From the sequence record CP099787.1: DNA of 64,000 bases. One strand, written 5' to 3'. Under the pieces are notes generated by a model. The model did not search any database, was not told the DNA's origin, and saw only the letters and a program-made list of their open reading frames with translations. Position numbers and translations under genes: made by a program. Below are positions 1,683 to 28,889 of the stretch, in pieces (position 1 is the first letter of the stretch; every line of letters starts with the position of its first letter). Origin of the DNA: a plasmid.

Positions 1683-1735
1683 ACTCCATAAGCTTTTCAG
1701 CTCAAAAAATAGAAATCAGCCTATCCGATTTCTTG
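1683..1735 (-). promoter_or_regulatory. conserved structured 5' leader (HP1 with GGAUAGGCU loop, plus HP2 abutting the SD)
   Basis: In minus-strand sense: gaaatcggataggctgatttc, then a U-rich spacer, then gagctgaaaagcttatggag. It is one of about 11 full copies. Confidence 0.6.
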
Positions 1736-1777
1736 CTTAAATTATAACATTTTGCTTAATTTTTTCAAGCACTTTGA

Positions 1778-1812
1778 AACAAAAAAAGCCGTTATTCACG
1801 GCTTTTTTTTTG
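1778..1812. terminator. bidirectional rho-independent terminator
   Basis: aaaaaaagccgttattcacggcttttttttt is a stem gccg..cggc flanked by A and T runs. Confidence 0.65.
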
Positions 1813-1820
1813 TTTCAAAA

Positions 1821-2105
1821 TTAAATCCAAATTGCCTGTTTACTATCCCATTTTACGATTTTATAACTATCACTAATTTCACTCTTCTTATAGTCAAAAG
1901 CATTTTGATAAGCCATGTGAATAGCATTGCATATTTCTGGATCACTTAGTTCATCTATTTCAAATTCATCTTGCTTAACTCTTTCAGCTTGACGACCAAA
2001 ATTGTGAGCTATCCAAAACAATTTATCAGCCAATTTATATTCTAATTTAATTTTACAAATCGAAGTATCAATGACATTCATATTTGAATCAACAATTGCA
2101 TACAT
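1821..2105 (-). CDS. hypothetical protein (94 aa)
   Basis: ORF preceded by the conserved leader (copy at 2113-2162). Confidence 0.55.
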   Translation of the reverse strand: MYAIVDSNMNVIDTSICKIKLEYKLADKLFWIAHNFGRQAERVKQDEFEIDELSDPEICNAIHMAYQNAFDYKKSEISDSYKIVKWDSKQAIWI

Positions 2106-2112
2106 CTTAAAA

Positions 2113-2162
2113 CTCCATAAGCTTTTCAGCTCAAAAAATAGAAATCAGCCTATCCGATTTCA
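2113..2162 (-). promoter_or_regulatory. conserved structured 5' leader (HP1 + HP2-SD)
   Basis: Near-identical to the copy at 1683-1735. Confidence 0.6.
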
Positions 2163-2207
2163 CAAATAAATTATATCATATATGTTGTTGAAATTATACA
2201 TTTTAAG

Positions 2208-2241
2208 TTAAAAAAAGCCGATTTTGTCGGCTTTTTTTTGT
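2208..2241. terminator. bidirectional rho-independent terminator
   Basis: aaaaaaagccgattttgtcggcttttttttg. Confidence 0.65.
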
Positions 2242-2250
2242 AGAAAATAG

Positions 2251-2748
2251 TTAAGCAATTTTCTTAATTTTGCTACTAGTTTTTACCTTTTCATTTCCGT
2301 ATTTTGCTCTAAGCTCGTCCATATCTTTGTTTCCTCGTCCTCTGCATTCTGTACCTACATATATCCAAAGTTTTCTAGCATGTGCCCATTTTAAACCAGC
2401 CTCTTTTAATGCTTCCTTATGCGCTTTTGTATTGCCTGAAACATATAACCATAGCCCTATTCTCTCAATCTCTAACCCATCCAAGATTTCTATCTTTTCT
2501 AAAACTTCTCTCAATCGAATTTCTGCTTCAATTTCTTCATCTCGGTTTTTAAAAGTAGATTTCTCTGAATAGTTACTGTCTGCCTTTTTATTAATTAGAA
2601 CTTTTAATAGCTGCTCATATTCTGAATTTATGGCTTGCATATTTTCAGTCGAGCCGCCCATGTCTGGATGATGTTTAAAGCAAAGTTTACGGTATTCTTT
2701 CTTTAAATCATCAAGGTTGTTTACATCAGAACTAAACCATTTTTTCAT
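2251..2748 (-). CDS. J-domain (DnaJ-like) protein
   Basis: The N-terminus carries the HPD motif ...YRKLCFKHHPDMGG.... The true start is probably the ATG at 2748 (MKKWF), because the ORF-track start lies inside the conserved leader. Confidence 0.7.
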   Translation of the reverse strand: MKKWFSSDVNNLDDLKKEYRKLCFKHHPDMGGSTENMQAINSEYEQLLKVLINKKADSNYSEKSTFKNRDEEIEAEIRLREVLEKIEILDGLEIERIGLWLYVSGNTKAHKEALKEAGLKWAHARKLWIYVGTECRGRGNKDMDELRAKYGNEKVKTSSKIKKIA

Positions 2749-2783
2749 TTTGATCTCCATAAGCTTTTCAGCTCTAATTTTTA

Positions 2784-3098
2784 TTATTCACAATTCAAGA
2801 TAGTGTAATGATTTTCACAGATTAGACGAAAATTATTAGTAGCAATTTGAGCGGCATCCTCTATAGAATTAGATGTAAAATCTAAAATTCCATCTATCCG
2901 ATAATTTGAAACTGGACCATATTTACAATCAATAAATACAATTGAGTCATCAATTTGAGTAATGAAATAAATAGTGTCATTGGCTACTAAATGTTTTGGA
3001 TTTTGTGGTGATTCTGAGAAAAATATCCCATGTTCTTTTCCACATGCAGAAATTAAATTTCTGAAGTAATTAAGGGCAATTTTTGTATAAATTTTCAT
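2784..3098 (-). CDS. hypothetical protein
   Basis: The ORF-track N-terminus MKSDRLISIYELKSL is simply the conserved leader translated. The real start is the ATG at 3098 (MKIYTKIAL), 7 nt after the aagg SD. Confidence 0.55.
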   Translation of the reverse strand: MKIYTKIALNYFRNLISACGKEHGIFFSESPQNPKHLVANDTIYFITQIDDSIVFIDCKYGPVSNYRIDGILDFTSNSIEDAAQIATNNFRLICENHYTILNCE

Positions 3099-3103
3099 AG
3101 TAC

Positions 3104-3150
3104 ACCTTAAGCTTTTCAGCTCATATATAGAAATCAGCCTATCCGACTTC
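3104..3150 (-). promoter_or_regulatory. conserved structured 5' leader (HP1 + HP2-SD)
   Basis: gaagtcggataggctgatttc ... gagctgaaaagcttaaggtg, with a G-U wobble in the HP1 stem. Confidence 0.55.
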
Positions 3151-3236
3151 ACCCCTTAATTATACTATATTCTCATGTCTTTTTATTAAGAAAAAACATA
3201 TATTTAGTGTATTTTTTCGTGTTATAAAAGACATTT

Positions 3237-3661
3237 GCAGAGCAACGTGTCCACGTTGCGAACTGATGAAATTTGCGAGCATCCCCCTCCTTGATTACCG
3301 TTTCAAACTTCGAGCGAGTCAGTCAAAATCTGTGATTTTGACTAGACGACCGAAGAAGTGAAACTTCTCCCATTGGACCTTATCCGGTAATAACAAAGCA
3401 ATCCCGCAGGGTTGCGACAAATAGCCCTCTAAATCGCTCTAATTGCCCCTAGATTCAATTTTAAAGATAAACAGCATCCGATCATGCTGCGTTAGGGATG
3501 TTGCCAGTAAGGGGCGAAATACAAGCGTAAAAAAAGAGGATTTGAATCGAGTATTAAAATCAGGTTCAGGCTTTGCATGAAACTAGATTTTAAACTCGAT
3601 GGATCCTCTTTTTCGCTTGGAGTTCGAGCGAAGCCAACTAGCCCGGCCCGTAGGGAACGCC
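3237..3661. repeat. about 425-bp GC-richer, highly self-complementary repeat, copy A (full length)
   Basis: Near-identical to 9018-9442, with a single mismatch. It contains multiple perfect inverted repeats (caacgtgtccacgttg; gtcaaaatctgtgattttgac; aagaggat..atcgagt/actcgat..atcctctt). There is no convincing ORF. Confidence 0.8.
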
Positions 3662-3689
3662 CATAAAAAGATTAAAAAAAAATCAAGTA

Positions 3690-4080
3690 AGATTATTTTT
3701 TACTTTATAAAGCTCAAAAATTTCTTTCGTATGAAGCTGCTCATAATCAAAAAATAGAACTTTATTTTCTCTCGCTTTTCGTACTTCATCAACTTTACGT
3801 CTAAACACCATATTTTTATTGCATAGATAGTCAATCTGTTTGTAAAAGTCACTTTCTAATTCATTAAAAGAATCTGTATCTGATAGATATAGAATTTTAT
3901 TTTTTAAGCTTTTTAAACCTACTGAACCTTAATTTTCACCTACTAGATATCGCCTACAATATTCTTTTTGATGCACATTAGAATAGTGACCACAACCAAT
4001 AAAATTAATAAGATATACAACCACTTGCCTAAAATTATTTTCAACATATTTAAATTATCAATCGAAATTTTCATCTTTAA
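3690..4080 (-). pseudogene. degenerate coding remnants: a 43-codon hydrophobic ORF (MKISIDNLNMLKIILGKWLYILLILLVVVTILMCIKKNIVGDI) followed by about 70 in-frame codons with no start
   Basis: Minus-strand reading frames are too short or lack a start, and the region sits between repeat copy A and the next gene. Confidence 0.25.
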
Positions 4081-4090
4081 ATCCTCATGG

Positions 4091-4103
4091 TTGCGGATCC
4101 GCA
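4091..4103. repeat. degenerate copy (13/14) of the TTGCGGATCCGCAA palindrome
   Basis: The sequence here is ttgcggatccgcat. Confidence 0.4.
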
Positions 4104-4167
4104 TCACTTGAATATTTACCTCTATCGAGAGATTAAATGCGGGCCTCCGTTGGGAAGCCCCTAAAGT

Positions 4168-4926
4168 TTAAAAATTGGCTATTAAAGTTAAGTCTGTGTA
4201 TGGATAGAACTTTAAGAAACATTCAAAAGCCATCTTACTTTCTTCTGCTCCACCGTTATTGTACGTGTTAGAAAACTTCTCTATCTTGTAGTCTTTTCCG
4301 CTCTGTTGAAGGATATAGAAGTTAATTTCCGCTTCGTTAAATGTTTGATAAAAAGTATCTTCATCCATATCTAACGGAAATACATACCCTTTAGTTTGGA
4401 GATCAAATTCTAGTTTATTACCTATAATAAACTTGTCTGCCTGACGCTTGTTTCGAAGTAAAATATAGATAATGTAGTCAGCCCAAAACTGTAGAATCTC
4501 TTCTTGATGTTCATCAAAATATACCTTTCCATTATGTCTTACTTGGTATATTGCATGGAGATTTGCTCTAATGATCACATCGAATGTATTTATCACATAT
4601 CCCGTTTCTGGATCTTCATAATATTTTTCGTTTAGATCAAAATTAACTGGAAAGAAAAAACCATTTGCAGTCATCCATTTTGTATTCATGCAGCATTCTA
4701 CAAAGGTTTGATATACACAGTATTCGTAAACTTCCTCAAAAACGTCTTGCGCTAAAATTTGCAAAAGTCTGTTTTCATTACTGCCAAAATTGAGTTTTCT
4801 AATTTTGTCCAAAAATTCAGATTTATATTCATCTAAATTTGTCAACTCATCCAGCCCGTCATACTGAGCTACATTAAGATTCCTGATAAAAAATTCATTT
4901 TCGCTAATTAAGTCTTGTAAGTTCAT
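4168..4926 (-). CDS. hypothetical protein (252 aa); paralog of 5515..6213
   Basis: An HP2-SD leader precedes it. It shares the motif W-M-x-x-N-G-F-(F/Y)-x-P with the 232-aa product. Confidence 0.6.
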   Translation of the reverse strand: MNLQDLISENEFFIRNLNVAQYDGLDELTNLDEYKSEFLDKIRKLNFGSNENRLLQILAQDVFEEVYEYCVYQTFVECCMNTKWMTANGFFFPVNFDLNEKYYEDPETGYVINTFDVIIRANLHAIYQVRHNGKVYFDEHQEEILQFWADYIIYILLRNKRQADKFIIGNKLEFDLQTKGYVFPLDMDEDTFYQTFNEAEINFYILQQSGKDYKIEKFSNTYNNGGAEESKMAFECFLKFYPYTDLTLIANF

Positions 4927-4992
4927 TTATGCCACCTTAAGCTCTTCAGCTCATGTTAAAAAGTTTCAAAAAGGGTTTTGCTTTTGCTTTAT

Positions 4993-5376
4993 TCAAGCCT
5001 CTAAATAGCTGACTTCCTTTGCTTCCAATAGTTCTTGATAGACAAATAAAATCAGATCCCATCGATTCTTGCCATATGAACAATTGCCATACATGTTTTT
5101 GTTATTCTCATAATAGTCAAGGTATATCTCTGAGGGATCCTCGCCTTCAATTCTAACTGTATAACTTCGATCATTATTTTTCTCAGGCCATTTATCCATA
5201 ATTTCTAGAAAAGATAAGTATTCTTTGAATGGGACATTTCGTTCTACCAAAACACAAACACCTTCATTAAGATCGGTAATTGAGTAGCTGCCCTGACTAA
5301 CTGTAATCCCACACTGGATGAGTTTTTTATGGTTTAAGAGGAACTGGAATAAATCTTTTAGATTATTGTCTTTCAT
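4993..5376 (-). CDS. hypothetical protein (about 127 aa)
   Basis: The conserved leader precedes it, and the true start is probably at 5376 (MKDNNL). Confidence 0.55.
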   Translation of the reverse strand: MKDNNLKDLFQFLLNHKKLIQCGITVSQGSYSITDLNEGVCVLVERNVPFKEYLSFLEIMDKWPEKNNDRSYTVRIEGEDPSEIYLDYYENNKNMYGNCSYGKNRWDLILFVYQELLEAKEVSYLEA

Positions 5377-5388
5377 ATTAATCACCAT

Positions 5389-5432
5389 AAGCTTATCAGC
5401 TCAAATTTTGAAGTTAGCCTATCCAACTTCCT
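5389..5432 (-). promoter_or_regulatory. conserved structured 5' leader (HP1 + HP2-SD); compensatory HP1 stem variant gaagtt/aacttc
   Basis: ggaagttggataggctaacttc ... gagctgataagcttatggtg. Confidence 0.55.
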
Positions 5433-5484
5433 TTAATTATTATACATCAAAAACATATTTTTGTTTTAATATAAATTTAATTTT

Positions 5485-5517
5485 TTAAAAAAACGGGCAT
5501 TATTGCCCGTTTGTTTA
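5485..5517. terminator. bidirectional rho-independent terminator
   Basis: aaaaaaacgggcattattgcccgtttgttt. Confidence 0.6.
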
Positions 5518-6213
5518 GAAAGATGCCAGCAACTCAATATCTGGTAAAAGAGGTTTAATAGCACTTTTAAAATCAAGTGCATCATATACCCCTGAGACAC
5601 TGTGAAAAGTACCTACTGGAATAATCTCATTCTCATTTTCTTTCGCATACAGCAAACTTATCAAAATTTCTGAATCTAGAAATTGTTCATTAAAAATTTC
5701 ATCATCTGAAATTCTTTCTACGAAAATGTATCCTTCCTGATGTAACTCAAACTCATACTTATTTCCTAGTTCTAATTTAAAAATTTTATCATCTGAGCAA
5801 TGTACCGATTCTATTTTTTCAACGTACTTAATTAGAAACTCAACAAACCTTGTTTCGATTATTGCAGTATCAGTTTTGATCAATGTTTTTAATGCTGTGA
5901 TATTACAAAACAGTACTACTTCTAAAATAGAAATATTTGTTTTGTTATAATCTTCAACCATAGAAGGGACGTAAAAACCATTGCCAATCATCCAGCTAGA
6001 TGTAGATACATCAATGTTCATCATCTCCAAAGTATTTGACACAGCAGATTGATAAACATTCAAAAAAGCACGTTCTGCACTTGTAAGTTTCGCGCTTTCT
6101 AACTCAGAACCTTTTATTCTATCTAGAAAATCAACAAGCTCATCTTTTCCATCAGCAATTGCTAGAAGCTCGTTACGGGTATAAAAATATAAATTTGCTA
6201 TAAAGTATTTCAT
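5515..6213 (-). CDS. hypothetical protein (232 aa); paralog of 4168..4926
   Basis: Leader upstream; the paralogy is visible in the central region. Confidence 0.6.
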   Translation of the reverse strand: MKYFIANLYFYTRNELLAIADGKDELVDFLDRIKGSELESAKLTSAERAFLNVYQSAVSNTLEMMNIDVSTSSWMIGNGFYVPSMVEDYNKTNISILEVVLFCNITALKTLIKTDTAIIETRFVEFLIKYVEKIESVHCSDDKIFKLELGNKYEFELHQEGYIFVERISDDEIFNEQFLDSEILISLLYAKENENEIIPVGTFHSVSGVYDALDFKSAIKPLLPDIELLASF

Positions 6214-6217
6214 TAAC

Positions 6218-6268
6218 TCACCTTAAGCTTATCAGCTCAATATTAATAGAATCAGCCTATCCGATTCA
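6218..6268 (-). promoter_or_regulatory. conserved structured 5' leader (HP1 + HP2-SD)
   Basis: gaatcggataggctgattc ... gagctgataagcttaaggtg. Confidence 0.55.
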
Positions 6269-6279
6269 TACATATTTGA

Positions 6280-6462
6280 TTATTTTTCACTAATTACGAT
6301 ATTACTAATATCATAATTGTTTAAAAGTTCATTTAGAAGTTTTACATCTATATCACTACTGCCTAGTAAAACGTTCAAAAAAATTTCTATCCGATCATCT
6401 GGTGTTAGTTGTTCAAGTTTTTCATCATTTCTGAAAAAATCCATGAAGTGTTCGCGGTCCAT
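6280..6462 (-). CDS. hypothetical small protein (60 aa)
   Basis: A strong SD (ggaggtaaatATG), with the 22-bp palindrome immediately upstream. Confidence 0.45.
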   Translation of the reverse strand: MDREHFMDFFRNDEKLEQLTPDDRIEIFLNVLLGSSDIDVKLLNELLNNYDISNIVISEK

Positions 6463-6474
6463 ATTTACCTCCGT

Positions 6475-6496
6475 AGCCGTTGCGGATCCGCAACGG
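6475..6496. repeat. 22-bp perfect palindrome gccgttgcggatccgcaacggc (family core TTGCGGATCCGCAA)
   Basis: Read directly from the sequence; it is self-complementary. Confidence 0.85.
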
Positions 6497-6510
6497 CTAA
6501 AATATATGTC

Positions 6511-7077
6511 TTAAGCGTAACTAGTGAATTTTTGACGCTCATAAACTTTTGTTCCAGTTTCATCTATGACCGTAAATTTTAATAATCTAGCAATTTCACG
6601 ATTTCCAATCTGAACATATTCAGACTCTATTTTCTTTCTAAATGCTGGCCCTATAAATTCATTCGGTTTTGGAGTAACCCATCCTCTCATGTCTTCTTCA
6701 AAACGATATTTTTCAATCTCCCGAAGTGTTACAGTCTTTGCAGTAGATGAAATTACTTGATAAAAACTTACGTTTGTTTGTTCTGATCCCCAGCTAGAAA
6801 CAAGAATTGAACCTGGAATAAGTTTTTCTTTGAATGCGTTAGTTTTCTCTTTTTCTATAAGCTCTTTATTAAATATTTCTTTTACCAGATTCAGCCCATC
6901 AGACCAACAATTAAAATATTCCCATTTTAGCTTTTTTGAGTTTTTTTCAAAAATTCGTGCCGATAAATGAGAGGGTGATAAGTAAATTGTTTTGCCTGTA
7001 AGTTTGGACTTGAAAATTAGTGAGTCTGAATAAACTAGATGGCCTAGATTGTTAGTTATAAGAGTTGCTTTTTTCAT
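6511..7077 (-). CDS. hypothetical protein (about 188 aa)
   Basis: The conserved leader precedes it, and the true start is probably the ATG at 7077 (MKKATL). Confidence 0.55.
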   Translation of the reverse strand: MKKATLITNNLGHLVYSDSLIFKSKLTGKTIYLSPSHLSARIFEKNSKKLKWEYFNCWSDGLNLVKEIFNKELIEKEKTNAFKEKLIPGSILVSSWGSEQTNVSFYQVISSTAKTVTLREIEKYRFEEDMRGWVTPKPNEFIGPAFRKKIESEYVQIGNREIARLLKFTVIDETGTKVYERQKFTSYA

Positions 7078-7083
7078 AATATT

Positions 7084-7128
7084 CACCTTAAGCATTTCTG
7101 CTCATTTGAAACCAGCCTATCCGATTTC
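7084..7128 (-). promoter_or_regulatory. conserved structured 5' leader (HP1 + HP2-SD)
   Basis: gaaatcggataggctggtttc ... gagcagaaatgcttaaggtg, with a G-U wobble. Confidence 0.55.
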
Positions 7129-7199
7129 TCCTTTTAATTATAACATATTCTCGACCACTTACAAATTTATTAACGCAATATAAACAAACACTTAAGCAT

Positions 7200-7245
7200 A
7201 AATATAACCTAAAGGTTATGCTTGCAAATATAACCTAAAGGTTAT
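7200..7245 (+). promoter_or_regulatory. tandem 20-bp direct repeats, each containing the palindrome taacctaaaggtta (putative higBA operator/promoter)
   Basis: aaatataacctaaaggttat occurs twice, at 7200-7219 and 7226-7245, about 35 bp upstream of the toxin start. Confidence 0.5.
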
Positions 7246-7277
7246 AAAATAAAGTATCAACTTTATGATGATTTGTA

Positions 7278-7637
7278 ATGGCTTGGGATGTAGAAACAAC
7301 AGAACTTTTTGATTCTTGGTTGGCAGAACAAGATGAAAATGCTCAAGATAAAATCTTAGCGTCTTTGCTTGTTTTGTCAGAACTGGGGCCAAATCTAGGC
7401 CGGCCTCATGTTGATACTATTAAAGAATCAAAATATCCGAACATGAAAGAGATACGTGTGCAAGTTAAAGGTCATCCGATCCGTGGTTTCTTTGCATTTG
7501 ATCCAGAACGTAAAGCCATTGTTTTGTGTGCTGGAGATAAGAAAGGGCTAAATGAAAAAGCCTTTTATAAAGAAATGATCAAGATTGCAGATGAACAATA
7601 TGAGCAATATTTACGTGATAATTACGGAGATAAATAA
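7278..7637 (+). CDS. higB: RelE/ParE-superfamily toxin (HigB-like 'addiction module killer')
   Basis: A 119-aa product placed upstream of an HTH antitoxin, with a 1-nt ATGA overlap onto the next gene. The sequence pattern is typical of this toxin family. Confidence 0.6.
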   Translation: MAWDVETTELFDSWLAEQDENAQDKILASLLVLSELGPNLGRPHVDTIKESKYPNMKEIRVQVKGHPIRGFFAFDPERKAIVLCAGDKKGLNEKAFYKEMIKIADEQYEQYLRDNYGDK

Positions 7638-7936
7638 TGGCTAAATTAAACGATATAATTTCAAAACGCTCACCTGAAAGCCAACAACGCATCAAGAAAA
7701 TGGCAAATCAAATGCTATTGGATATTAACCTCTCGAACTTACGGGAAGAGTTAAAAATATCTCAAGCTGAAATTGCAAAAAATCTAGGTGTAAGCCAAGC
7801 TGCTATTTCAAAACGTGAAAAATTAGGTAAAGATCTTAAGATTTCATCATTAAAAGAATATGTTGAAGCTATGGGTGGCAAAGTAAGGTTAGATGTTGAG
7901 TTACCTAACGGAAAGCATGTTGCGATATCTATTTAA
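7637..7936 (+). CDS. higA: HTH (XRE-type) antitoxin, HigA-like
   Basis: The helix-turn-helix motif is LKISQAEIAKNLGVSQAAISKREK. A 99-aa product translationally coupled to the toxin. Confidence 0.6.
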   Translation: MAKLNDIISKRSPESQQRIKKMANQMLLDINLSNLREELKISQAEIAKNLGVSQAAISKREKLGKDLKISSLKEYVEAMGGKVRLDVELPNGKHVAISI

Positions 7937-8038
7937 TATGATCCCCAATATGATTGAAAATCTTTAAAACATCAAAAATCGTTTTAACTATTCAATCATT
8001 AGTTACAAAGTAGTGAATTCTAATAAAGGAAAATATAA

Positions 8039-8302
8039 ATGTCTGTCATAGATAGAGCTGTAGAAAAGAATGCTAATTTATCTTATGTTGCCTTAAAAGT
8101 GATCGAATGCTTTAAGGATGCTGGCTTAGACTTAAATTACATTGATGATAAGATAAGTGAATTTTCAGATTTAAGTAATTATGCTGCTCTACATCAAGCA
8201 TTACGTATTCTTGATGATAAGAATATAAATCGATTAGCAGATAAACTTGGTGTTTCGATTTCAGACCTTGAAACGACTTTGTTTGTTTTAAATAAAATTT
8301 AA
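8039..8302 (+). CDS. hypothetical protein (87 aa)
   Basis: ORF with an AAGGAAA SD, followed by a terminator. Confidence 0.5.
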   Translation: MSVIDRAVEKNANLSYVALKVIECFKDAGLDLNYIDDKISEFSDLSNYAALHQALRILDDKNINRLADKLGVSISDLETTLFVLNKI

Positions 8303-8307
8303 TTTTT

Positions 8308-8340
8308 AAGAGGTTGTGTTAACACAACCTCTCTTTTTTA
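8308..8340 (+). terminator. rho-independent terminator
   Basis: aagaggttgtgttaacacaacctct + T7. Confidence 0.65.
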
Positions 8341-8394
8341 TTTCTTTAATTAAAGCTACATGGCTCTTTATCTTTATTGCTCAATTCTTAATTT

Positions 8395-8883
8395 TTATAA
8401 ATTATTTTTCATAACCGAGTAAGTATATAACTGCTCCCAAGCCTCTAGTTTTAAAAACATCAGTGCTTTTTCATATGTAGCACCCTTAATATACATCCCT
8501 CCATCCTTGATCAATCCCTCTGACAAATTTTTCTCTATTTCATTTTGAGGTTCTAAATGCTCTTTTTTTAGGAAATCAATATGTTCTTGAATCACTAGGT
8601 TAAAGTTAATGCCTATATGGTTTAATCTTTCAGTCTGACTTAACTGATCATCATTTAAATCATAAGTAGTTAAAAAAGCTATCTCCTTGCTTCTAGCTAC
8701 ATTATGTTTTGCTACCGCAATGTAAAGTGAATGGCCTGTGACAATATTTGTGATTTTAGAATAATATGATTCAGGAAAATCTTTAATCAATTTCTTAGCA
8801 TTTGGATCTGTTGGCAAATTTTTATAATTTAGTTCTACAAATAGATAATTGTTTTTAAAACTTCTGTTTAAATTCATTTTCAT
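8395..8883 (-). CDS. hypothetical protein (about 162 aa)
   Basis: The ORF-track N-terminus is the translated leader; the true start is probably MKMNLNRS at 8883. Confidence 0.55.
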   Translation of the reverse strand: MKMNLNRSFKNNYLFVELNYKNLPTDPNAKKLIKDFPESYYSKITNIVTGHSLYIAVAKHNVARSKEIAFLTTYDLNDDQLSQTERLNHIGINFNLVIQEHIDFLKKEHLEPQNEIEKNLSEGLIKDGGMYIKGATYEKALMFLKLEAWEQLYTYSVMKNNL

Positions 8884-8886
8884 ACT

Positions 8887-8932
8887 CCATAAGCTTTTCA
8901 GCTCATCTATAGAAACCAGCCTATCCGATTTC
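8887..8932 (-). promoter_or_regulatory. conserved structured 5' leader (HP1 + HP2-SD)
   Basis: gaaatcggataggctggtttc ... gagctgaaaagcttatggag. Confidence 0.55.
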
Positions 8933-9017
8933 ACCCCTTAATTATACTACATTTCATGTCTTTTTATTAAGAAAAAACATATATTTAGTGTATTTTTTCG
9001 TGTTATAAAAGACATTT

Positions 9018-9442
9018 GCAGAGCAACGTGTCCACGTTGCGAACTGATGAAATTTGCGAGCATCCCCCTCCTTGATTACCGTTTCAAACTTCGAGCGAGT
9101 CAGTCAAAATCTGTGATTTTGACTAGACGACCGAAGAAGTGAAACTTCTCCCATTGGACCTTATCCGGTAATAACAAAGCAATCCCGCAGGGTTGCGACA
9201 AATAGCCCTCTAAATCGCTCTAATTGCCCCTAGATTCAATTTTAAAGATAAACAGCATCCGATCATGCTGCGTTAGGGATGTTGCCCGTAAGGGGCGAAA
9301 TACAAGCGTAAAAAAAGAGGATTTGAATCGAGTATTAAAATCAGGTTCAGGCTTTGCATGAAACTAGATTTTAAACTCGATGGATCCTCTTTTTCGCTTG
9401 GAGTTCGAGCGAAGCCAACTAGCCCGGCCCGTAGGGAACGCC
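9018..9442. repeat. about 425-bp structured repeat, copy B (full length)
   Basis: Identical to copy A except for one base. The listed ORF 9273..9455 lies inside it and is rejected as coding. Confidence 0.8.
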
Positions 9443-9499
9443 AAAATATTTCCAACAGATATTAAATTATTGTGAAGACACCTGGCTAATTACCACACA

Positions 9500-10036: not shown

Positions 10037-10085
10037 CAAATTCTCCTAAAGCTCTTCAGCTCTTTAATGCTCTGATAAGCTACTT

Positions 10086-10640: not shown

Positions 10641-10720
10641 CAGTATCACCTTAAGCCTTAGAGCTCCAGTATGAAAATTAAGTCCTATCTAGACTGATAA
10701 GACCTATTTAAAGCTGAACA

Positions 10721-11230: not shown

Positions 11231-11269
11231 AACCTCTCCATAAGCCCTTCGGCTCGTTAAATAATTCAA

Positions 11270-11899: not shown

Positions 11900-12070
11900 A
11901 GGTAATCCTCTTAACTTAATACCCGGTGCATAACATTGAATGATCTATTGGGTTTTCAACTTTTGGATCTAAAATTTGATCACAAAGTGAACAATGGTAC
12001 TTCTCTGCCTTAATGAGAATTTTTTTGACATTCCCGCCTAAGCCTAAAGACAATATGTCTTCTTCCTTTT

Positions 12071-12643: not shown

Positions 12644-12647
12644 ATTT

Positions 12648-12905: not shown

Positions 12906-13009
12906 GAGAACACCTTAAGCTTTTCAGCTCATCAATCTATTAATACTTTCAGTACCAATAATACAATATATCGGATTATATTTTAATCATTTTATTTAAA
13001 AATTAATCC

Positions 13010-14290: not shown

Positions 14291-14302
14291 AACATTTCCC
14301 CG

Positions 14303-15406: not shown

Positions 15407-15441
15407 TTTAAAACTCCTTAAGTCTTACGACTCGCAATTAC

Positions 15442-15720
15442 TCACCAGTTTATTAACTGAAGAAAAAGATTAAACGTTGTAAAGAGAACCATTGCAATGG
15501 TAGAAATTAGAAGAAGCAAAGAGATTGTACTATCATCATCATCACCATAAATCAAAGATATAAAATAAAGTCCAAAGCTAAGTATTATTAGAATAATATT
15601 TCTAAATACTACTTCGTCCCATATATACCTAATGAAAAATATTAAAGCAGCGTATGCAAGTAGGACGATTAAAACTCCGATCGAGAACCGAAGGATTTTG
15701 GCAAGTTTTTTCATAAACAC
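15442..15720 (-). CDS. small membrane protein (92 aa)
   Basis: HP2-SD leader upstream and two TM helices. Confidence 0.5.
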   Translation of the reverse strand: MFMKKLAKILRFSIGVLIVLLAYAALIFFIRYIWDEVVFRNIILIILSFGLYFISLIYGDDDDSTISLLLLISTIAMVLFTTFNLFLQLINW

Positions 15721-15752
15721 CTCAAGCTTTGCAGCTCTACTTTCAACATATT

Positions 15753-15986: not shown

Positions 15987-16000
15987 TTTTTAATCACTAC

Positions 16001-17230: not shown

Positions 17231-17231
17231 T

Positions 17232-17285
17232 TTAATCCTCGCTTTTAAATGTAATTAAACACATGTTGCAAGCTAACGATTTCAT
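17232..17285 (-). CDS. candidate 17-aa upstream ORF / leader peptide MKSLACNMCLITFKSED
   Basis: It starts 7 nt after the HP2-SD leader. Its stop is 1 nt before the SD/ATG of the 409-aa gene. Confidence 0.3.
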   Translation of the reverse strand: MKSLACNMCLITFKSED

Positions 17286-17365
17286 AGTTTCTCCTTAAGC
17301 TCTTCAGCTCTATAGCTTTTTGAATTATTAAATAAACAAGGAGGTCGCCCCCCTTGTTAGTTGTT

Positions 17366-18622: not shown

Positions 18623-18625
18623 AGC

Positions 18626-19399: not shown

Positions 19400-19407
19400 T
19401 GTTCTTT

Positions 19408-19452
19408 ACTCCAAGCATTTCTGCTCAATTTTGAAATCAGCCTATCCGATTT
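19408..19452 (-). promoter_or_regulatory. conserved structured 5' leader (HP1 + HP2-SD) upstream of parA
   Basis: gaaatcggataggctgatttc ... gagcagaaatgcttggag. Confidence 0.55.
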
Positions 19453-19530
19453 CTGAATAAATTATACTACTAAAACATACTTTTTTGCAAGAAAAAGATT
19501 AAATTTTATAGCGCCAATTTGTCTTAAATA

Positions 19531-20369: not shown

Positions 20370-20397
20370 TTTTTTCTCCGCAAGCTCTTCAGCTCAA

Positions 20398-20895
20398 TCA
20401 ATTAATAGTTTTCAATGTATTGAATTGTATAAAACCATTTAAACCGGCTTTACGAAAAGTTTCTAAGACTTTGAAATACATTAATTGGAAATTAAGAGAC
20501 TCATCTGCTGTTTTAGTGAATTCTCCCAAGTGGTCAGGTCTGAATAATATATCTGCGTTATTATTAAACCAGGTCAAACATTCAAAAATGAAGTCACCAT
20601 AGAACTCATATGTTTCTTGAATAGCGGTTAAGAAAGGACAAGGAATACCAATCAATTCTTCAAGAACTTTTAATGTTGAAATAAACTTATTAAATGACTC
20701 TTTTGTACTTAATGTATAAACATTAAAGTCCTTACAATCATACATAGTAGTAGATAAGGCAACTAAGCCAGTATTGTATTCAAAAGATGGCTTCATAATA
20801 TCAATATGGCCAACAGCACATGCACAATGTGATGGAGTCTTTAAACGACCAATTTTTAAATCAGTTATGATTAATACATTAAAATAATTATTCAT
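20398..20895 (-). CDS. hypothetical protein (165 aa)
   Basis: The conserved leader precedes it. Confidence 0.55.
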   Translation of the reverse strand: MNNYFNVLIITDLKIGRLKTPSHCACAVGHIDIMKPSFEYNTGLVALSTTMYDCKDFNVYTLSTKESFNKFISTLKVLEELIGIPCPFLTAIQETYEFYGDFIFECLTWFNNNADILFRPDHLGEFTKTADESLNFQLMYFKVLETFRKAGLNGFIQFNTLKTIN

Positions 20896-20900
20896 TTTTT

Positions 20901-20948
20901 CACCATAAGCTTTTCAGCTCAAAATACGAAATCAGCCTATCCGATTTC
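20901..20948 (-). promoter_or_regulatory. conserved structured 5' leader (HP1 + HP2-SD)
   Basis: gaaatcggataggctgatttc ... gagctgaaaagcttatggtg. Confidence 0.55.
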
Positions 20949-21057
20949 TAACCCCAAAATTGTAATACAATGATGTATTTTAATCAAGATCTTTAAACGT
21001 TAATATTGTTAAAAAACATTAATTTAATGAAATATATTTTCGAATTAAACATTACTA

Positions 21058-21237
21058 ACAGAGCAACGTGTCCACGTTGCGAACTGAAGGAATTTGCGAG
21101 CATCTCCCTACTTGATTACCGTTTCAAACTTCGAGCGAGTCAGTCAAAATCTGTGATTTTGACTAGACGACCGAAGAAGTGAAACTTCTCCCATTGGAGC
21201 TTATCCGGGAGTAACAAAGCAATCCCGCAGGGTTGCG
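21058..21237. repeat. structured repeat, truncated copy C (about 180 bp, about 93% identical to the 5' part of copy A)
   Basis: It runs from acagagcaacgtgtccacgttgcg to gcagggttgcg. Confidence 0.75.
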
Positions 21238-22152: not shown

Positions 22153-22423
22153 TAATTTCACCTTAAGCATTTCTGCTCGAATCTCAATTGTTTTAGCCTT
22201 TTATAATTTTTAATCTGAACCGCATCCCTCTTTATTAAAGGCCCCCATAGGTAGCTCCCAGTTTTTTGTAAATATAGGCAAGGTATATTCTTTTCTCATT
22301 GCCTGATCCAAAGCTACTAAATCATTGATATTAAAAGGCTGAATACCCTCACTTATATTTATGACATTGATTTTTTTTCGACTAATTGTAGTTGCAAATT
22401 GTTCTTCGTATTTAAAAATTCGA

Positions 22424-23302: not shown

Positions 23303-23307
23303 TCAAT

Positions 23308-23356
23308 TCACCTTAAGCTTTTCAGCTCATATATAGAAACCAGCCTACCCGATTTC
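23308..23356 (-). promoter_or_regulatory. conserved structured 5' leader (HP1 + HP2-SD)
   Basis: gaaatcgggtaggctggtttc ... gagctgaaaagcttaaggtg. Confidence 0.55.
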
Positions 23357-23442
23357 ACCCCTCAATTATACTACATTTTCATGTCTTTTTATTAAGAAAA
23401 AACATATATTTAGTGTAATTTTTCGTTTTATAAAATACTTTT

Positions 23443-23669
23443 GCAGAGCAACGTGTCCACGTTGCGAACTGATGAAATTTGCGAGCATCCCCCTCCTTGA
23501 TTACCGTTTCAAACTTCGAGCGAGTCAGTCAAAATCTGTGATTTTGACTAGACGACCGAAGAAGTGAAACTTCTCCCATTGGACCTTATCCGGTAATAAC
23601 AAAGCAATCCCGCAGGGTTGCGACAAATAGCCCTCTAAATCGCTCTATTTGCTCCTAGATTCAATTTTA
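23443..23669. repeat. structured repeat, truncated copy D (about 227 bp)
   Basis: Near-identical to the 5' half of copies A and B, including the same upstream flank. Confidence 0.75.
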
Positions 23670-24957: not shown

Positions 24958-25006
24958 TTTTGGCTCCTTAAGCATTTCTGCTCAATTAAAATAAGTTTTA
25001 AAGATT

Positions 25007-26102: not shown

Positions 26103-26114
26103 ATTTTGATCCTT

Positions 26115-26441
26115 TTAGTTGATACGTAAATCTTCAAGTTTCGCACCTTTTTCAATTTCGGCTACTAACCAACGTGGTTGTTTACCGCGTCCAGTCCAAG
26201 TATCTTGTTCGTTTGCTTTACTACGATAGCGCGGTTTTACAGATTTACGAGCTTTCTTTTTAGAGTTCGCTGCGCCTACTTTCAAAAGATCCTCTACTGA
26301 ATATCCTACGCTTTCTGCAATTGAAATTATTTTCAAATAAGCATCCTCAATGGCTTGTTCTTTTTTGATTTCAATTAATTTGGCTGCTTCAAGCTGAAGA
26401 TCTTTTAACTCTTCAATTGATAATTCACTAATTTGCGACAT
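26115..26441 (-). CDS. hns: H-NS family nucleoid-associated protein
   Basis: The C-terminal DNA-binding motif is TWTGRGKQPRW. The true start is probably MSQISEL at 26441, after the agaggtg SD. Confidence 0.8.
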   Translation of the reverse strand: MSQISELSIEELKDLQLEAAKLIEIKKEQAIEDAYLKIISIAESVGYSVEDLLKVGAANSKKKARKSVKPRYRSKANEQDTWTGRGKQPRWLVAEIEKGAKLEDLRIN

Positions 26442-26470
26442 ATTCACCTCTTTATTAAACATTAATTACT

Positions 26471-26488
26471 TGTTGCGGATCCGCAACA
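26471..26488. repeat. 18-bp perfect palindrome tgttgcggatccgcaaca, immediately upstream of hns
   Basis: Read directly from the sequence. Confidence 0.85.
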
Positions 26489-26506
26489 TTCTTTCTCTAC
26501 TAATAA

Positions 26507-26983
26507 CTACTGTGATTGATTCTTTCGCCACATACTCGGATATACCGGCTTAGCATCTTGCCAAAGACCAATTTTATTTTTTCGCGCGTATGACTCTAGA
26601 TCCAGCATTATTGGATCATCTAAATATTCACGAAAGGCCCATGCCATACCATTTTTAACCATTATCCTATTAATAGGATCCACACCTACTAGAACAGTTC
26701 CTATCAATCGATGATACTTGTCATACCCTTTTTCCTGGATATAAACATTTCTATTAAAAGTTAAATCTGATAAAGCTTGCTTAGCCTTTGCTCCAAATGG
26801 CTGGCTTTTTTCTGGTGCATCAATATCTGCTAGACGCACCTTTATTTGATTATTTGATCTGTCTAAAACTGTTATTGTATCTCCATCAGTTACACCAATT
26901 ACTCTTGCAACAAAGTCTGCGTTAGCAATGTTACTTACTAACAATAAGCTACCTAAAAATATCTTTATTCCAGTTACTTTCAT
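26507..26983 (-). CDS. secreted thermonuclease (staphylococcal-nuclease-like)
   Basis: SNase-like motifs are present (GDTI.V, RL..IDAPE, GLW). The signal peptide MKVTGIKIFLGSLLLVSNIANA suggests the start is at 26983. Confidence 0.75.
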   Translation of the reverse strand: MKVTGIKIFLGSLLLVSNIANADFVARVIGVTDGDTITVLDRSNNQIKVRLADIDAPEKSQPFGAKAKQALSDLTFNRNVYIQEKGYDKYHRLIGTVLVGVDPINRIMVKNGMAWAFREYLDDPIMLDLESYARKNKIGLWQDAKPVYPSMWRKNQSQ

Positions 26984-26987
26984 AAGG

Positions 26988-27203
26988 TCAGTTTCCGCTA
27001 ACAATATATAGTTTTTTTGTTTTATGATGATCTTCAAGCATTTGTTTTTCAAGAATATCTATTCCGTTAGCTAGATCAATGCAATCCTGGCATATATATT
27101 CTTTATTAAAACAATTTTCATCTTGCTCAATTTCTTGAAAAATATGTGAATTTTGGTCACAAATCGAGCAAGTCTTAGGGAACTGAATTATTTCACCATT
27201 CAT
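26988..27203 (-). CDS. small Cys-rich (zinc-ribbon-like) protein (71 aa)
   Basis: CxxC...CxxC spacing is present, and it sits upstream of the nuclease gene. Confidence 0.45.
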   Translation of the reverse strand: MNGEIIQFPKTCSICDQNSHIFQEIEQDENCFNKEYICQDCIDLANGIDILEKQMLEDHHKTKKLYIVSGN

Positions 27204-27335
27204 AATTTTTTCTCACCCTCATCTGTTTTGGATCAATTACTGGAAATTAAAGATCTTTTTTTAAAGCCATTTTCTTCACAAGTTGTTTCACCAACATAGC
27301 TAGATCCGCTTTCACAAGCATGTTTAATAACCTGC

Positions 27336-27623
27336 TTACTCACTAAAAATACGAGAGCTAATGAAATTACTAAAGGAGCAAGTATTCCGATAATTTTCAT
27401 TTCTTATCACCCTTTCTTCTATTAACTCATAGCCTGAAAATGTTCTAACAATGGGCTTAGGTAAATTGTCTCTTTTGATAAATAGAAAATCTTGTTGCAG
27501 TTTTTGAAATACTTGCCAAGTAGTTTTCGTATCCTCATTAAGGTAATTACCATCTTGATCTTCAGTAAAATCTAAGGTTGAAAAATATTGTTCAAACAAG
27601 CCTTTATTAGTCATAGCCTTCAA
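27336..27623 (-). CDS. hypothetical protein (95 aa)
   Basis: ORF with a 4-nt overlap onto the upstream gene. Confidence 0.45.
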   Translation of the reverse strand: MKAMTNKGLFEQYFSTLDFTEDQDGNYLNEDTKTTWQVFQKLQQDFLFIKRDNLPKPIVRTFSGYELIEERVIRNENYRNTCSFSNFISSRIFSE

Positions 27624-28216
27624 CTCCAGACCTCATTTATCTCGGTCATCAAGTTTGAATCTTCTAAACATTTAAAAAACGATGATTGCTGCGACTCTGA
27701 TAAAATCACTTCAGTAAGATGTGGTTTCTTATCTACAATTTTTGAATTGTAAATAGATGCATAGAACTTATTTTCTTCATTAGCTGAAAGTATAAAAACA
27801 CTTTCATTTGAAGAATTAGGATCTAGAGAGCAACCGATCAAAGTTTTTGATTTAATGCAATTCATTTCATTAAAAAGGAAATGCTCAATAATATTTAAGT
27901 TATCTTCCAACACCTTGAAATTGTTTAGTTTTGTGCGGATAGACCAACTATTTGACCAAAGCTTTAAGATAACTGTGGAAAGAGCAAATATTGCTGTAAG
28001 AAAGTAATATCCTAACGTGGAGTTATCACTCGTTAATCCAGAATACCCAGCATATGCTGCTAAAATTACTAGTAAACAAAGTAGTATTAAATTTACTTGC
28101 TTCTTCTTAGTCGCTTCGATATCCGAAAAAATCTTATTAAAGCCACCCTCTGAATAACGACTGAGGTAGAAATTTATAACTTTAGATTTGTTAATAGTGT
28201 CTGTTTTTGAGCTCAT
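27620..28216 (-). CDS. membrane protein (198 aa)
   Basis: ORF with two TM helices. Confidence 0.5.
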   Translation of the reverse strand: MSSKTDTINKSKVINFYLSRYSEGGFNKIFSDIEATKKKQVNLILLCLLVILAAYAGYSGLTSDNSTLGYYFLTAIFALSTVILKLWSNSWSIRTKLNNFKVLEDNLNIIEHFLFNEMNCIKSKTLIGCSLDPNSSNESVFILSANEENKFYASIYNSKIVDKKPHLTEVILSESQQSSFFKCLEDSNLMTEINEVWS

Positions 28217-28387
28217 CAGTTACCCTTTTAAATTCAATTCAAGGATTGTTTGTTTTTGCTGAAGTTTAAAATCAAATTGTAGTAGGACTGGCTAATTCGG
28301 ATTTTTTTATAGCCAAAGTCTATGTAATAAAAAACCCTATGGTTTTTTATCCGTTTCTTTGGAATACAATTAAATTTCAATATATGC

Positions 28388-28762
28388 TTAACAGTCATTT
28401 TCATGGTCCACCTCTGTGTTAAATAGCTTTAACTCAACGAACCAGTAATTAAACTTACCTTCTACACTAGCAATTATTTCTGCATATACTCCCTTTGAAT
28501 TAACTAAAATTTTGACATCTTCTAAATCAATAGGACCTTTGAAGTTAAGAAGGCGTAAATGAATGAAGTTATGTAAATTGATTTCAGGTATACGATATGT
28601 AGTGAAGAAACAGGATTCCAAGCTTTTCAGCTTCGCAATACTCTGATCTAAGTCCTGAACTATTTTTTCAGGCAAATTAAGAATGAGGGTTTCAAAGTCT
28701 AAGTGACTTTTAAAATTTAGGATATTATCTGGGAAAGCTAGAAATTGAATGGTTTCTACCAT
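28388..28762 (-). CDS. hypothetical protein (about 124 aa)
   Basis: The true start is probably MVETIQ, after the HP2-SD leader. Confidence 0.5.
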   Translation of the reverse strand: MVETIQFLAFPDNILNFKSHLDFETLILNLPEKIVQDLDQSIAKLKSLESCFFTTYRIPEINLHNFIHLRLLNFKGPIDLEDVKILVNSKGVYAEIIASVEGKFNYWFVELKLFNTEVDHENDC

Positions 28763-28889
28763 CTTGAACTCCTTAAGCATTTCTGCTCATTAATTGCGTA
28801 GATTATACTACTAAAACATACTTAAAACAAACTGTTTATTATTTAGCTATACTAACAGACGGTTCTGTATATTTAAACAAAAAAAATAA

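Follow-up and report, generated by a model that had tools for sequence, protein, structure and literature searches.

A recurrent two-hairpin 5' leader with compensated RNA stems on a RepAci6-type conjugative plasmid of Acinetobacter baumannii

Many genes on a conjugative resistance plasmid of Acinetobacter baumannii are preceded by a structured 5' leader built from two short hairpins, hairpin 1 (HP1) near the promoter and hairpin 2 (HP2) beside the Shine-Dalgarno sequence (SD). We analyzed a stretch of 64,000 nucleotides from this RepAci6-type plasmid (sequence record CP099787.1, hereafter the window) and found 10 copies of HP1 and 31 copies of HP2, separated by clear score gaps from all other matches of the covariance models. 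The shared structured leader proposed by a first-pass annotation is thus real. With a probability of about 0.5 we read the repeats as a modular, mRNA-acting expression cassette for leading-region (establishment) genes. The leader is apparently undescribed, and what appears to be new is a 5' hairpin with an AUNGG loop that recurs across unrelated conjugative backbones of Acinetobacter. Literature searches yielded no description of HP1/HP2 leader motifs, and the plasmid goes unmentioned in the RNA-interactome paper on AB5075.

Over the whole window there are nine exact copies of the 9-mer GGATAGGCT and one variant, GGGTAGGCT at 23350, all on the minus strand. A covariance model of HP1, built from 15 distinct copies, gave exactly 10 matches scoring 31–41 bits; the next one, at 15.9 bits, is the reverse strand of a true copy. 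As the HP1 and HP2 models were trained on the sequences that were searched, the score gap is meaningful and the E-values are not. All ten genes to which the first-pass annotation had assigned HP1 were recovered by the model. Some details of the hairpin changed. Instead of a 9-nt loop, folding with ViennaRNA gave an 8-bp stem (GAAAUCGG/CUGAUUUC) closed by an AUAGG pentaloop; two of the stem pairs, an invariant G·U and a G-C, fall within the previously supposed loop. This loop had also been called invariant, yet the copy at 23350 carries GUAGG instead of AUAGG. The A/U-rich spacer between HP1 and HP2, given before as 7–9 nt, ranges from 4 to 10 nt.

The HP1 arms vary in a coordinated manner. All 119 of 119 alignment cells are complementary (100%), double changes occur at three pairs (GAAGUU/AACUUC, GGAAUC/GAUUCC, GAAAUU/AAUUUC) and every one-sided change in the stem results in a G·U pair in mRNA sense. 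On the template strand, which is the inferred transferred strand, the G·U pairs of HP1 and HP2 become A·C mismatches. Because these pairs are valid only in mRNA sense, the repeats are RNA hairpins rather than DNA operators, and the compensated stems together with the fixed HP1 loop uphold the earlier claim of a structure at the RNA level. Variable complementary arms around a fixed asymmetric centre likewise point to a hairpin that is read single-stranded and not to the operator of a dimeric protein. Whole leaders fold better than shuffled sequences (z = -2.7 to -3.2). A check for trans-acting RNAs revealed no complement of the HP1 loop on the plasmid other than the HP1 copies themselves.

HP1 keeps a narrow distance from the promoter. 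Of 23 distinct HP1 leaders, 19 have a perfect TATAAT upstream of the hairpin, frequently preceded by TG. The -10 box is separated from the HP1 stem by 7–11 nt with a mode of 8 nt, therefore about 2 unpaired nucleotides (range 1–5) are predicted at the 5' end. With start sites predicted by the promoter consensus, HP1 should begin about 2 nt from the end of the mRNA, and the hairpin would be formed within the first 25 nt of the transcript. On these predicted start sites HP1 corresponds in position to the 5'-terminal stem-loops of the ompA type, which lie about 0–4 nt from the transcript end.

For HP2, the pattern GAG-N8-CTT-NN-GGWG has 30 matches in the window compared with 0.08 expected from shuffles. 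The HP2 covariance model returned 31 matches at 22.7–36 bits, followed by a gap down to 13.5 bits; 27 lie on the minus and 4 on the plus strand. Each HP2-bearing start named before was borne out and two more copies were added, at 34729(+) and 63434(+). The consensus GAG-YN-N4-NR-CUU is folded by ViennaRNA into a stem of 5–6 bp with an invariant G·U at its base and a 4-nt loop, which is free in sequence and of the GNRA type in 16 of 29 copies. In 28 of 29 scored window copies the 3' end of HP2 is located 2 nt ahead of the GG of the SD, and the distance from HP2 to the start codon is 9–14 nt. The SD consensus is AAGGUG, with many SDs reading GGUG. About three-quarters of the copies (22 of 29 scored) fall within the first 29 kb, and 21 of the 31 stand without HP1. 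According to the gene table made here, HP2 is seen only at starts with an upstream gap of at least about 28 nt, tightly coupled starts being devoid of it; several starts with long upstream gaps also lack HP2. The long N-termini of open reading frames (ORFs) that the first-pass annotation regarded as artefacts indeed reach into the leader.

Covariation in HP2 was assessed on sites chosen solely by the GAG..CTT flanks, an SD and a start codon, which avoids circularity. Among 66 distinct sites from the window and related plasmids both inner pairs are complementary in 65, in comparison to 18 of 75 GAG-N8-CTT sequences elsewhere. The loop-closing pair is U-A in 31, C-G in 25, A-U in 6 and U·G in 2 cases. 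The three lowest pairs (G·U, A-U, G-C) show no variation in the 66 sites, a constancy partly built in by the selection of flanks. Compensatory changes are therefore present in both stems, as the earlier proposal had anticipated.

HP1 and HP2 are elements of 14–23 nt placed ahead of genes, at set distances from the -10 box and the SD. We also considered mobile and recombination elements. Integron attC sites measure 57–141 bp, contain R''/L''-L'/R' boxes, are located at the 3' end of a cassette and depend on an integrase; the plasmid elements, at 14 and 21 nt, are too short, lie 5' of genes, and the only recombinases annotated are serine recombinase/resolvase genes. A miniature inverted-repeat transposable element or insertion sequence end, which would have terminal inverted repeats and target duplications, does not fit HP1 or HP2 either. 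The leader is thus no attC-like site and no such mobile element. Rfam gave 0 matches at the gathering threshold over the whole window, and permissive Rfam searches of 1640–3200 and 3150–4170 returned weak matches on terminators only, or nothing.

The region 1600–9600 is 99.8% identical to pDETAB8 and matches 268 plasmid records, nearly all of them Acinetobacter conjugative plasmids with a MOBF relaxase, an MPF_F transfer system and the RepAci6 type. Every gene between about 1134 and 29866 lies on the minus strand, directed at a non-coding stretch at about 200–1130, beyond which an operon for an accessory protein, the type IV coupling protein (T4CP) and MobF is found. As a rule, the transferred strand is the template of leading-region genes (PMC11541004). 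By this rule and by analogy with MOBF plasmids, the block at about 1134–29866 would represent the leading region and the plus strand the transferred strand. Strong bidirectional terminators separate the cassettes.

A leader query matched 231 plasmid records, 230 of which are from Acinetobacter. One of them, p1AB5075 (NZ_CP008707.1) of A. baumannii AB5075, was matched 8 times. An HP2-SD query was matched over its full length only in Acinetobacter plasmids (233 of 308 records), the remaining 75 records, mostly Vibrio, being 18-nt half-query matches with E = 4. Blastn of the leader against 50,697 phage records gave nothing relevant, and pattern scans of IMG/VR gave coding-sequence or chance matches only. 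A scan of metagenomes returned 8 fragments, 7 of which are AT-rich, plasmid-like and of the same architecture with extra stem variants. A degenerate HP1-HP2 pattern run over genome contigs proved too loose, all of its 120 loci being chance matches.

The HRAB-85 plasmid (rep_cluster_650) allows comparison over a larger distance. Its tra DNA is about 72% identical and its leading-region proteins are 40–85% identical to those of the window, and five of its promoters have the HP1 loop found here, alongside some 27 HP2 sites on that plasmid. Many differences at orthologous genes are compensated, for example GAGCC..GGCUU versus GAGCU..AGCUU at the J-domain gene. The HP1 loop and the HP2 frame are unchanged despite the divergence of the orthologues, suggesting that both are under purifying selection. 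In pBDT201-3, an Acinetobacter indicus plasmid, 11 copies of a different leader precede ardA and other anti-restriction genes (record positions 3975–18802). This leader consists, in order, of a palindrome-bearing promoter (TATATAAC-CTGA-GTTATATA in the spacer), a G+C-rich 5' hairpin followed by U5-7, HP2 (GAGCCGAAAGGCUU) and a third hairpin with covarying stems (CGUA/UACG or UGCA/UGCA) that displays the SD GGAG in its loop. Within PLSDB it was found in this record only.

A hairpin resembling HP1 is positioned after TATAAT in the same way in unrelated backbones. In pNDM-BJ02 (MOBQ/MPF_T) five leading-region promoters at record positions 40682–43448 read TATAAT-N10-AGGUCG-AUUGG-CGACCU, with the hairpin variants UUAAGUCG/CGACUUAA and CGAUCU. 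The MOBP/MPF_T plasmids pHZE23-1-2 (26167–28786) and pRCH51-3 (1857–4477) have five copies each of TATAAT-N10-AGGACGC-AUCGG-GCGACCU, whose loops are AUCGG, AUUGG or AAUAGG and whose downstream genes include parA and a J-domain gene. When the families are aligned on the loop, double changes are seen at all six flanking pairs, 94.9% of the cells are paired, and the loop U, G and G are invariant. The leaders of these three plasmids stand ahead of consecutive leading-region genes and have no HP2. HP1 and HP2 are separable modules, because AUNGG hairpins occur without HP2 in these backbones. The first-pass idea of one module under one control is not supported in that form, since 21 of 31 HP2 copies in the window lack HP1, pNDM-BJ02 and pRCH51-3 backbones have the HP1 type without HP2, and pBDT201-3 combines HP2 with a different 5' hairpin. 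The promoters differ as well: pHZE23-1-2 and pRCH51-3 contain the palindrome GTCCAC-NN-GTGGAC between -35 and -10, and those of pNDM-BJ02 an imperfect repeat in the spacer. Since each backbone has its own promoter palindrome, the hairpin is not a repressor site and is independent of plasmid-specific repressors. Apart from Par proteins, we found no protein common to all backbones with the AUNGG hairpin, which indicates a host partner or an intrinsic role. If the AUNGG loop has a partner, sequence comparison makes a host factor the more likely one.

Four of the HP1 promoters are preceded by a further repeat, E180, a non-coding core of 179 nt whose copies are 96–100% identical. It lies inside longer repeats of 300–570 bp, such as 3091–3661 and 8876–9442. 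Unannotated homologues with 70–78% identity were found in 358 plasmid records of Acinetobacter, among them pNDM-BJ01-type, pRCH51-type and small MOBQ plasmids; pNDM-BJ02 has two copies that are mutually inverted. RNAalifold predicted a long nested structure with compensation at 16 of its 48 pairs. The helices are predicted on both strands, which fold about equally well, and comprise 335 Watson-Crick cells against 1 G·U and 3 A·C. As wobble pairs are nearly absent, unlike in HP1 and HP2, E180 probably acts at the DNA level as a single-strand structure, and a priming or single-stranded DNA promoter element like Frpo/ssi is a reasonable hypothesis by analogy. E180 has no Rfam match, and the promoter scan detected no site within copy 1. 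Cassette-sized differences at 7940–9019 (pAb-G7-2) and 3662–4141 (pDETAB7a) have their junctions at the edges of E180 or the 570-bp repeat, as would be expected if leading-region genes were exchanged as modules there.

According to our preferred reading as an mRNA-acting cassette, a strong sigma-70 promoter would start the transcript about 2 nt ahead of HP1, which would leave too few unpaired 5' nucleotides for 5'-end-dependent decay, i.e. pyrophosphate removal followed by entry of RNase E. The conserved loop would flag the mRNA for a partner that recognizes its sequence; as the backbones having this loop share no candidate protein, the partner would probably be a host factor. HP2 would be a purely structural hairpin beside the ribosome-binding site, giving all genes the same SD context including internal cistrons without HP1. 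5'-terminal stem-loops stabilize Escherichia coli mRNAs such as ompA and papA (reviewed in PMC3997798), and leading regions are selected for fast expression (PMC13478746, PMC11541004). Among the roles suggested by the first-pass annotation, we infer processing or stability to be the best supported. Its RNA-level interpretation stands; the single shared control is not supported in the form proposed, nor is a plasmid-encoded regulator indicated.

RepAci6, pABTJ1-type and pNDM-BJ01-type plasmids are major vehicles of OXA-23, NDM-1 and amikacin resistance in Acinetobacter. Expression of the first genes after plasmid entry is known almost solely from enterobacterial plasmids (Frpo, zygotic induction), leading-region work so far having dealt with enterobacterial Frpo and with codon adaptation (PMC11541004, PMC13478746). 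A cassette with a loop-specific 5' hairpin would offer a testable handle on the expression of establishment genes in Acinetobacter and, being shared, a possible common target for blocking plasmid establishment. The leaders may also serve as naturally standardized, ready-made expression parts for this genus. Leader and E180 would add one or two families to catalogues of RNA and DNA structures that hold no such entries.

Several observations speak against the reading as an mRNA-acting cassette. The start sites of the HP1 transcripts are predictions from the promoter consensus. A plain stabilizer needs no fixed loop, therefore part of the HP1 function goes beyond stabilizing and is left unexplained by it. 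The invariant lower stem of HP2 suggests reading of its sequence and not of structure alone. Concerted evolution among paralogous copies inflates the conservation within a plasmid. Furthermore, the mean unpaired probability of the SD is 0.43 for an unaltered leader and becomes 0.44 when the 5' arm is mutated and 0.48 when HP2 is deleted. A few copies also allow base pairing between the U-rich spacer and GGAG through HP2. The partition-function calculations lend no support to HP2 as an insulator that keeps the SD single-stranded. A FourU-like pairing of U-spacer and GGAG was discarded as well, being found in few copies only, with nothing U-rich upstream at sites having HP2 alone. Pairing of the HP1 loop with the HP2 3' arm (AUAGGCU with AGCUUAU) is possible on paper; both partners are invariant and the 8-bp fold disfavours it, and the idea was dropped.

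The fixed positions could also be explained by a post-transcriptional regulon, in which a dedicated RNA-binding protein acts on HP1 and/or HP2. Variation at other positions spares the HP1 loop and the three bottom pairs of HP2, the distance between HP2 and the SD core is fixed at 2 nt, the SD of pBDT201-3 sits in the loop of a third covarying hairpin, and many plasmid proteins have no known function. Binding at the SD-abutting HP2 could block the ribosome and silence dozens of genes once the plasmid is established. We consider the regulon unlikely, and this silencing version of it no less so. The four backbones with AUNGG hairpins have no protein in common that could act as regulator, and a Pfam and PHROGs search of 50 proteins of the window, the majority encoded in the leading and maintenance regions, detected no RNA-binding, NusG-like, CsrA or FinO/ProQ domain. 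The plasmid-encoded RNA-binding regulator put forward by the first-pass annotation is therefore not indicated. Moreover, HP1 and HP2 differ in distribution, so that a single regulator cannot explain both. Control by CsrA/RsmA in particular, which would call for one GGA in a hairpin loop and another at the SD, was rejected: the GGA of HP1 lies in the stem, the pNDM-BJ02 hairpin AGGUCG-AUUGG-CGACCU is free of GGA, and the SD consensus is AAGGUG with GGUG at many SDs. An effect on transcription, with HP1 and the U-rich spacer as promoter-proximal attenuator or as a nut/put-like hairpin modifying the polymerase, appears improbable. In its favour, the hairpin would be made within the first 25 nt of the transcript, a terminator scan flags HP1 plus spacer at three copies, and in each of the 11 pBDT201-3 leaders 5–7 U come directly behind the G+C-rich 5' hairpin. 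However, a U-run follows only 3 of 7 HP1 copies in the scanned part (1100–9100), the others continuing with UAUAUAU, AAAU or AAAAUU, and in plasmids of the pNDM-BJ02 and pRCH51 types the stretch behind the hairpin is rich in A. Read-through control is not called for, as every cassette is equipped with a promoter and a terminator, and no NusG/RfaH-like or N-like protein is annotated. HP1 does not show the features of an intrinsic terminator or attenuator, which are seen only in the different 5' hairpin of pBDT201-3.

Global repressors are common in plasmids and HP1 overlaps the transcription start at ten promoters including that of parA, so its inverted repeat at +3 to +23 might be taken as the operator of a KorA/KorB-like global repressor. 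This is the least probable explanation and is disfavoured by the form of the repeat: compensated variable arms around a fixed asymmetric centre are the opposite of a dimer operator with its conserved half-sites and variable spacer, and one-sided changes are compatible with wobble pairing in one strand only. Besides, a separate dispersed palindrome, GTTGCGGATCCGCAAC (12 copies), and a ParB with KorB domain are already present, and the related backbones keep the hairpin while carrying their own promoter-spacer palindromes. A somewhat better case, still tentative, can be made for the repeats as mainly a recombination scaffold, persisting by mediating gain, loss or exchange of leading-region cassettes, which is compatible with an RNA function. 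The cassette of gene 2105 has no HRAB-85 counterpart and is flanked by leaders identical over about 52 nt, pAb-G7-2 lacks window positions 7940–9019, a gap of which one border coincides with that of E180 copy 2, the difference in pDETAB7a (3662–4141) lies at the end of the 570-bp repeat, and the PeSL elements of T4-like phages are a precedent (PMC2839356, PMC4122927). As a side effect, recombination has real support from these indels bounded by repeats in pAb-G7-2, pDETAB7a and HRAB-85. Shuffling by homology leaves unexplained the compensatory changes, the strand-specific wobbles and the fixed distances to -10 box and SD, and HP2 with 14 nt is too short for an efficient recombination substrate. 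Possible to a similar, limited degree is a joint interpretation covering the RepAci6, pABTJ1, pNDM-BJ01 and pRCH51 types. The AUNGG hairpin would then be a genus-wide tag read by a dedicated host factor, a post-transcriptional form of zygotic induction, and E180 the Frpo/ssi counterpart priming duplex conversion, folding on the incoming single strand and letting the adjacent promoter fire early.

We compared the leader with known systems of repeated hairpins. Stable C(UUCG)G tetraloop hairpins were reportedly described in intercistronic regions of T4 by Tuerk et al. in 1988. Like these, HP2 is short, lies between cistrons by ribosome-binding sites and often has a GNRA loop; in contrast to them it has an invariant lower stem GAG/CUU, a fixed distance of 2 nt to the SD and occurs in one plasmid group only. 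The boxB hairpin of lambda nut resembles HP1 in being a small promoter-near hairpin with a sequence-specific pentaloop in early transcripts, but the HP1 loop is AUNGG and not GNRNA, there is neither a boxA nor an N-like protein, and each cassette has its own promoter and terminator. One motif dispersed over many plasmid promoters is also known from the KorB/OB (operator) network of IncP plasmids; this role fits GTTGCGGATCCGCAAC and the KorB-domain ParB rather than HP1/HP2. The 5' UTRs (untranslated regions) of ompA and papA (Emory, Bouvet, Arnold and Belasco, cited in PMC3997798) share the order of a hairpin near the 5' end, an A/U-rich single strand, a second hairpin and the ribosome-binding site. 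The approximately 2 predicted unpaired 5' nucleotides of HP1 fit the requirement for protection there. Different from ompA and papA, the plasmid loop AUNGG is conserved across families and repeated at 10 unrelated genes, and stabilization is a prediction. PeSL elements of T4-like phages (PMC2839356, PMC4122927) likewise place a sigma-70 promoter and a stem-loop before small orphan genes in a plastic region, with indels bounded by repeats, an analogy and not membership; their stem-loop terminates the preceding gene, whereas the plasmid hairpins belong to the 5' UTR and are fixed relative to transcription start and SD. Frpo/ssi elements (Masai and Arai 1997; PMC11541004) are repeated non-coding elements of the leading region upstream of establishment genes in one orientation, as here. 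Frpo forms on the transferred strand, as a hairpin of about 300 nt with -35 and -10 inside it, while HP1/HP2 are short, lie downstream of an ordinary promoter and pair best as mRNA; in the plus-strand fold the -10 region is unpaired, other than in Frpo/ssi. The single-strand promoter role once considered for HP1/HP2 is thus not borne out, the elements being short and their wobble pairs failing on the inferred transferred strand, and E180 is the better candidate for an Frpo/ssi analogue.

Table 1. Coordinates of leaders, E180 copies and the dispersed palindrome in the window. HP1 and HP2 sites were located by covariance models.
Feature	Position (strand)	Details
Full leader, gene start 1676	1682..1769 (-)	promoter TTGAAA-16-TATAAT with TG; HP1 1711-1733; spacer; HP2-SD 1682-1706
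Full leader, gene start 2105	2111..2198 (-)	promoter; HP1 2140-2162; HP2-SD 2111-2135
Full leader, gene start 3098	3101..3187 (-)	promoter; HP1 3129-3151 (G·U variant GAAGUC/GAUUUC); HP2-SD 3101-3125
Full leader, gene start 5376	5381..5467 (-)	HP1 5409-5431 (doubly compensated GAAGUU/AACUUC); HP2-SD 5381-5405
Full leader, gene start 6213	6217..6304 (-)	weaker -10 AATAAT; HP1 6248-6268 (one pair shorter, GAAUC/GAUUC); HP2-SD 6217-6241
Full leader, gene start 7077	7082..7165 (-)	TTGTAA-16-TATAAT; HP1 7107-7129; 4-nt spacer; HP2-SD 7082-7106 (GAGCA/UGCUU)
Full leader, gene start 8877/8883	8883..8970 (-)	promoter; HP1 8911-8933; HP2-SD 8883-8907
Full leader, parA (start 19399)	19405..19490 (-)	promoter; HP1 19432-19454; HP2-SD 19405-19429, SD 2 nt closer
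Full leader, gene start 20895	20899..20985 (-)	promoter TACAAT; HP1 20927-20949; HP2-SD 20899-20923
Full leader, gene start 23302 (PAPS-reductase-like)	23307..23393 (-)	promoter; HP1 23335-23357 (loop GUAGG); HP2-SD 23307-23331
HP2-SD only, J-domain gene (start 2748)	2753..2777 (-)	
HP2-SD only, gene start 4926	4931..4955 (-)	
HP2-SD only, gene start 10036	10041..10065 (-)	
HP2-SD only, gene start 10640	10645..10669 (-)	
HP2-SD only, gene start 11230	11234..11258 (-)	GAGCC/GGCUU
HP2-SD only, gene start 12905	12909..12933 (-)	
HP2-SD only, gene start 15406	15412..15436 (-)	GAGUC/GACUU, loop GUAA
HP2-SD only, gene start 15714/15720	15716..15740 (-)	
HP2-SD only, 17-codon upstream ORF (17285-17232)	17289..17313 (-)	stop of the ORF overlaps start region of 409-aa gene (17230)
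HP2-SD only, N6-methylase gene (start 20369)	20374..20398 (-)	
HP2-SD only, gene start 22152	22157..22181 (-)	
HP2-SD only, DUF2786 gene (start 24957)	24962..24986 (-)	
HP2-SD only, gene start 28762	28767..28791 (-)	TATAAT box 13 nt upstream of HP2
HP2-SD only, traH (start 45492)	45496..45520 (-)	
HP2-SD only, 109-aa gene (start 45855)	45859..45883 (-)	
HP2-SD only, signal-peptidase-like tra gene (start 51639)	51643..51667 (-)	
HP2-SD only, gene start 55720	55724..55748 (-)	
HP2-SD only, gene start 34755	34726..34750 (+)	absent from first-pass annotation
HP2-SD only, gene start 62659	62628..62652 (+)	
HP2-SD only, gene start 63461	63431..63455 (+)	absent from first-pass annotation
HP2-SD only, gene start ~63882	63855..63879 (+)	
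E180 copy 1	3238..3416 (-)	upstream of HP1 promoter, gene 3098
E180 copy 2	9019..9197 (-)	upstream of HP1 promoter, gene 8877
E180 copy 3	21059..21237 (-)	96% identical; upstream of HP1 promoter, gene 20895
E180 copy 4	23444..23622 (-)	upstream of HP1 promoter, gene 23302
GTTGCGGATCCGCAAC copies	4090, 6479, 14326, 19535, 26472, 28892, 31928, 39387, 45636, 54955, 60013, 61743	16 bp each

The 16-bp palindrome GTTGCGGATCCGCAAC is dispersed over the window in 12 copies, 7 exact and 5 with one mismatch, with 0 expected by chance. One copy is found just upstream of the parA promoter. The ParB protein (gene 17366–18622) comprises a ParB_N domain and a KorB domain (39.7 bits, cut-off 22.3), and together they look like a partition and global-regulation network of the KorB/OB type. 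In HRAB-85 the palindrome lies 5–8 nt upstream of HP2 at four genes. A different set of tandem inverted repeats, TATAACCT-AA-AGGTTATA, at 7203–7265 precedes a divergent RelE/ParE-HTH (helix-turn-helix) toxin-antitoxin operon and probably serves as its operator, with a half-site similar to the palindrome of the pBDT201-3 leader promoters.

Some genes need a comment. The gene at 51639, labelled traF by the first-pass annotation, is annotated as a signal peptidase in related plasmids. Several backbone genes are split by frameshifts into two adjacent ORFs, each pair matching one intact ORF in relatives: those for an N6-methylase, a 257-aa protein, the zeta toxin, traG, traF and traN (19592–20369, 21378–22170, 31113–32196, 41046–44049, 46026–46703 with 45890–46060, and 46696–48755). 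They could be sequencing errors or pseudogenes in this copy. The upstream ORF of 17 codons (MKSLACNMCLITFKSED) at 17232–17285 on the minus strand, which has an HP2-SD of its own, ends 1 nt ahead of the ATG of the 409-aa gene at 17230, an arrangement that looks like translational coupling through a leader peptide.

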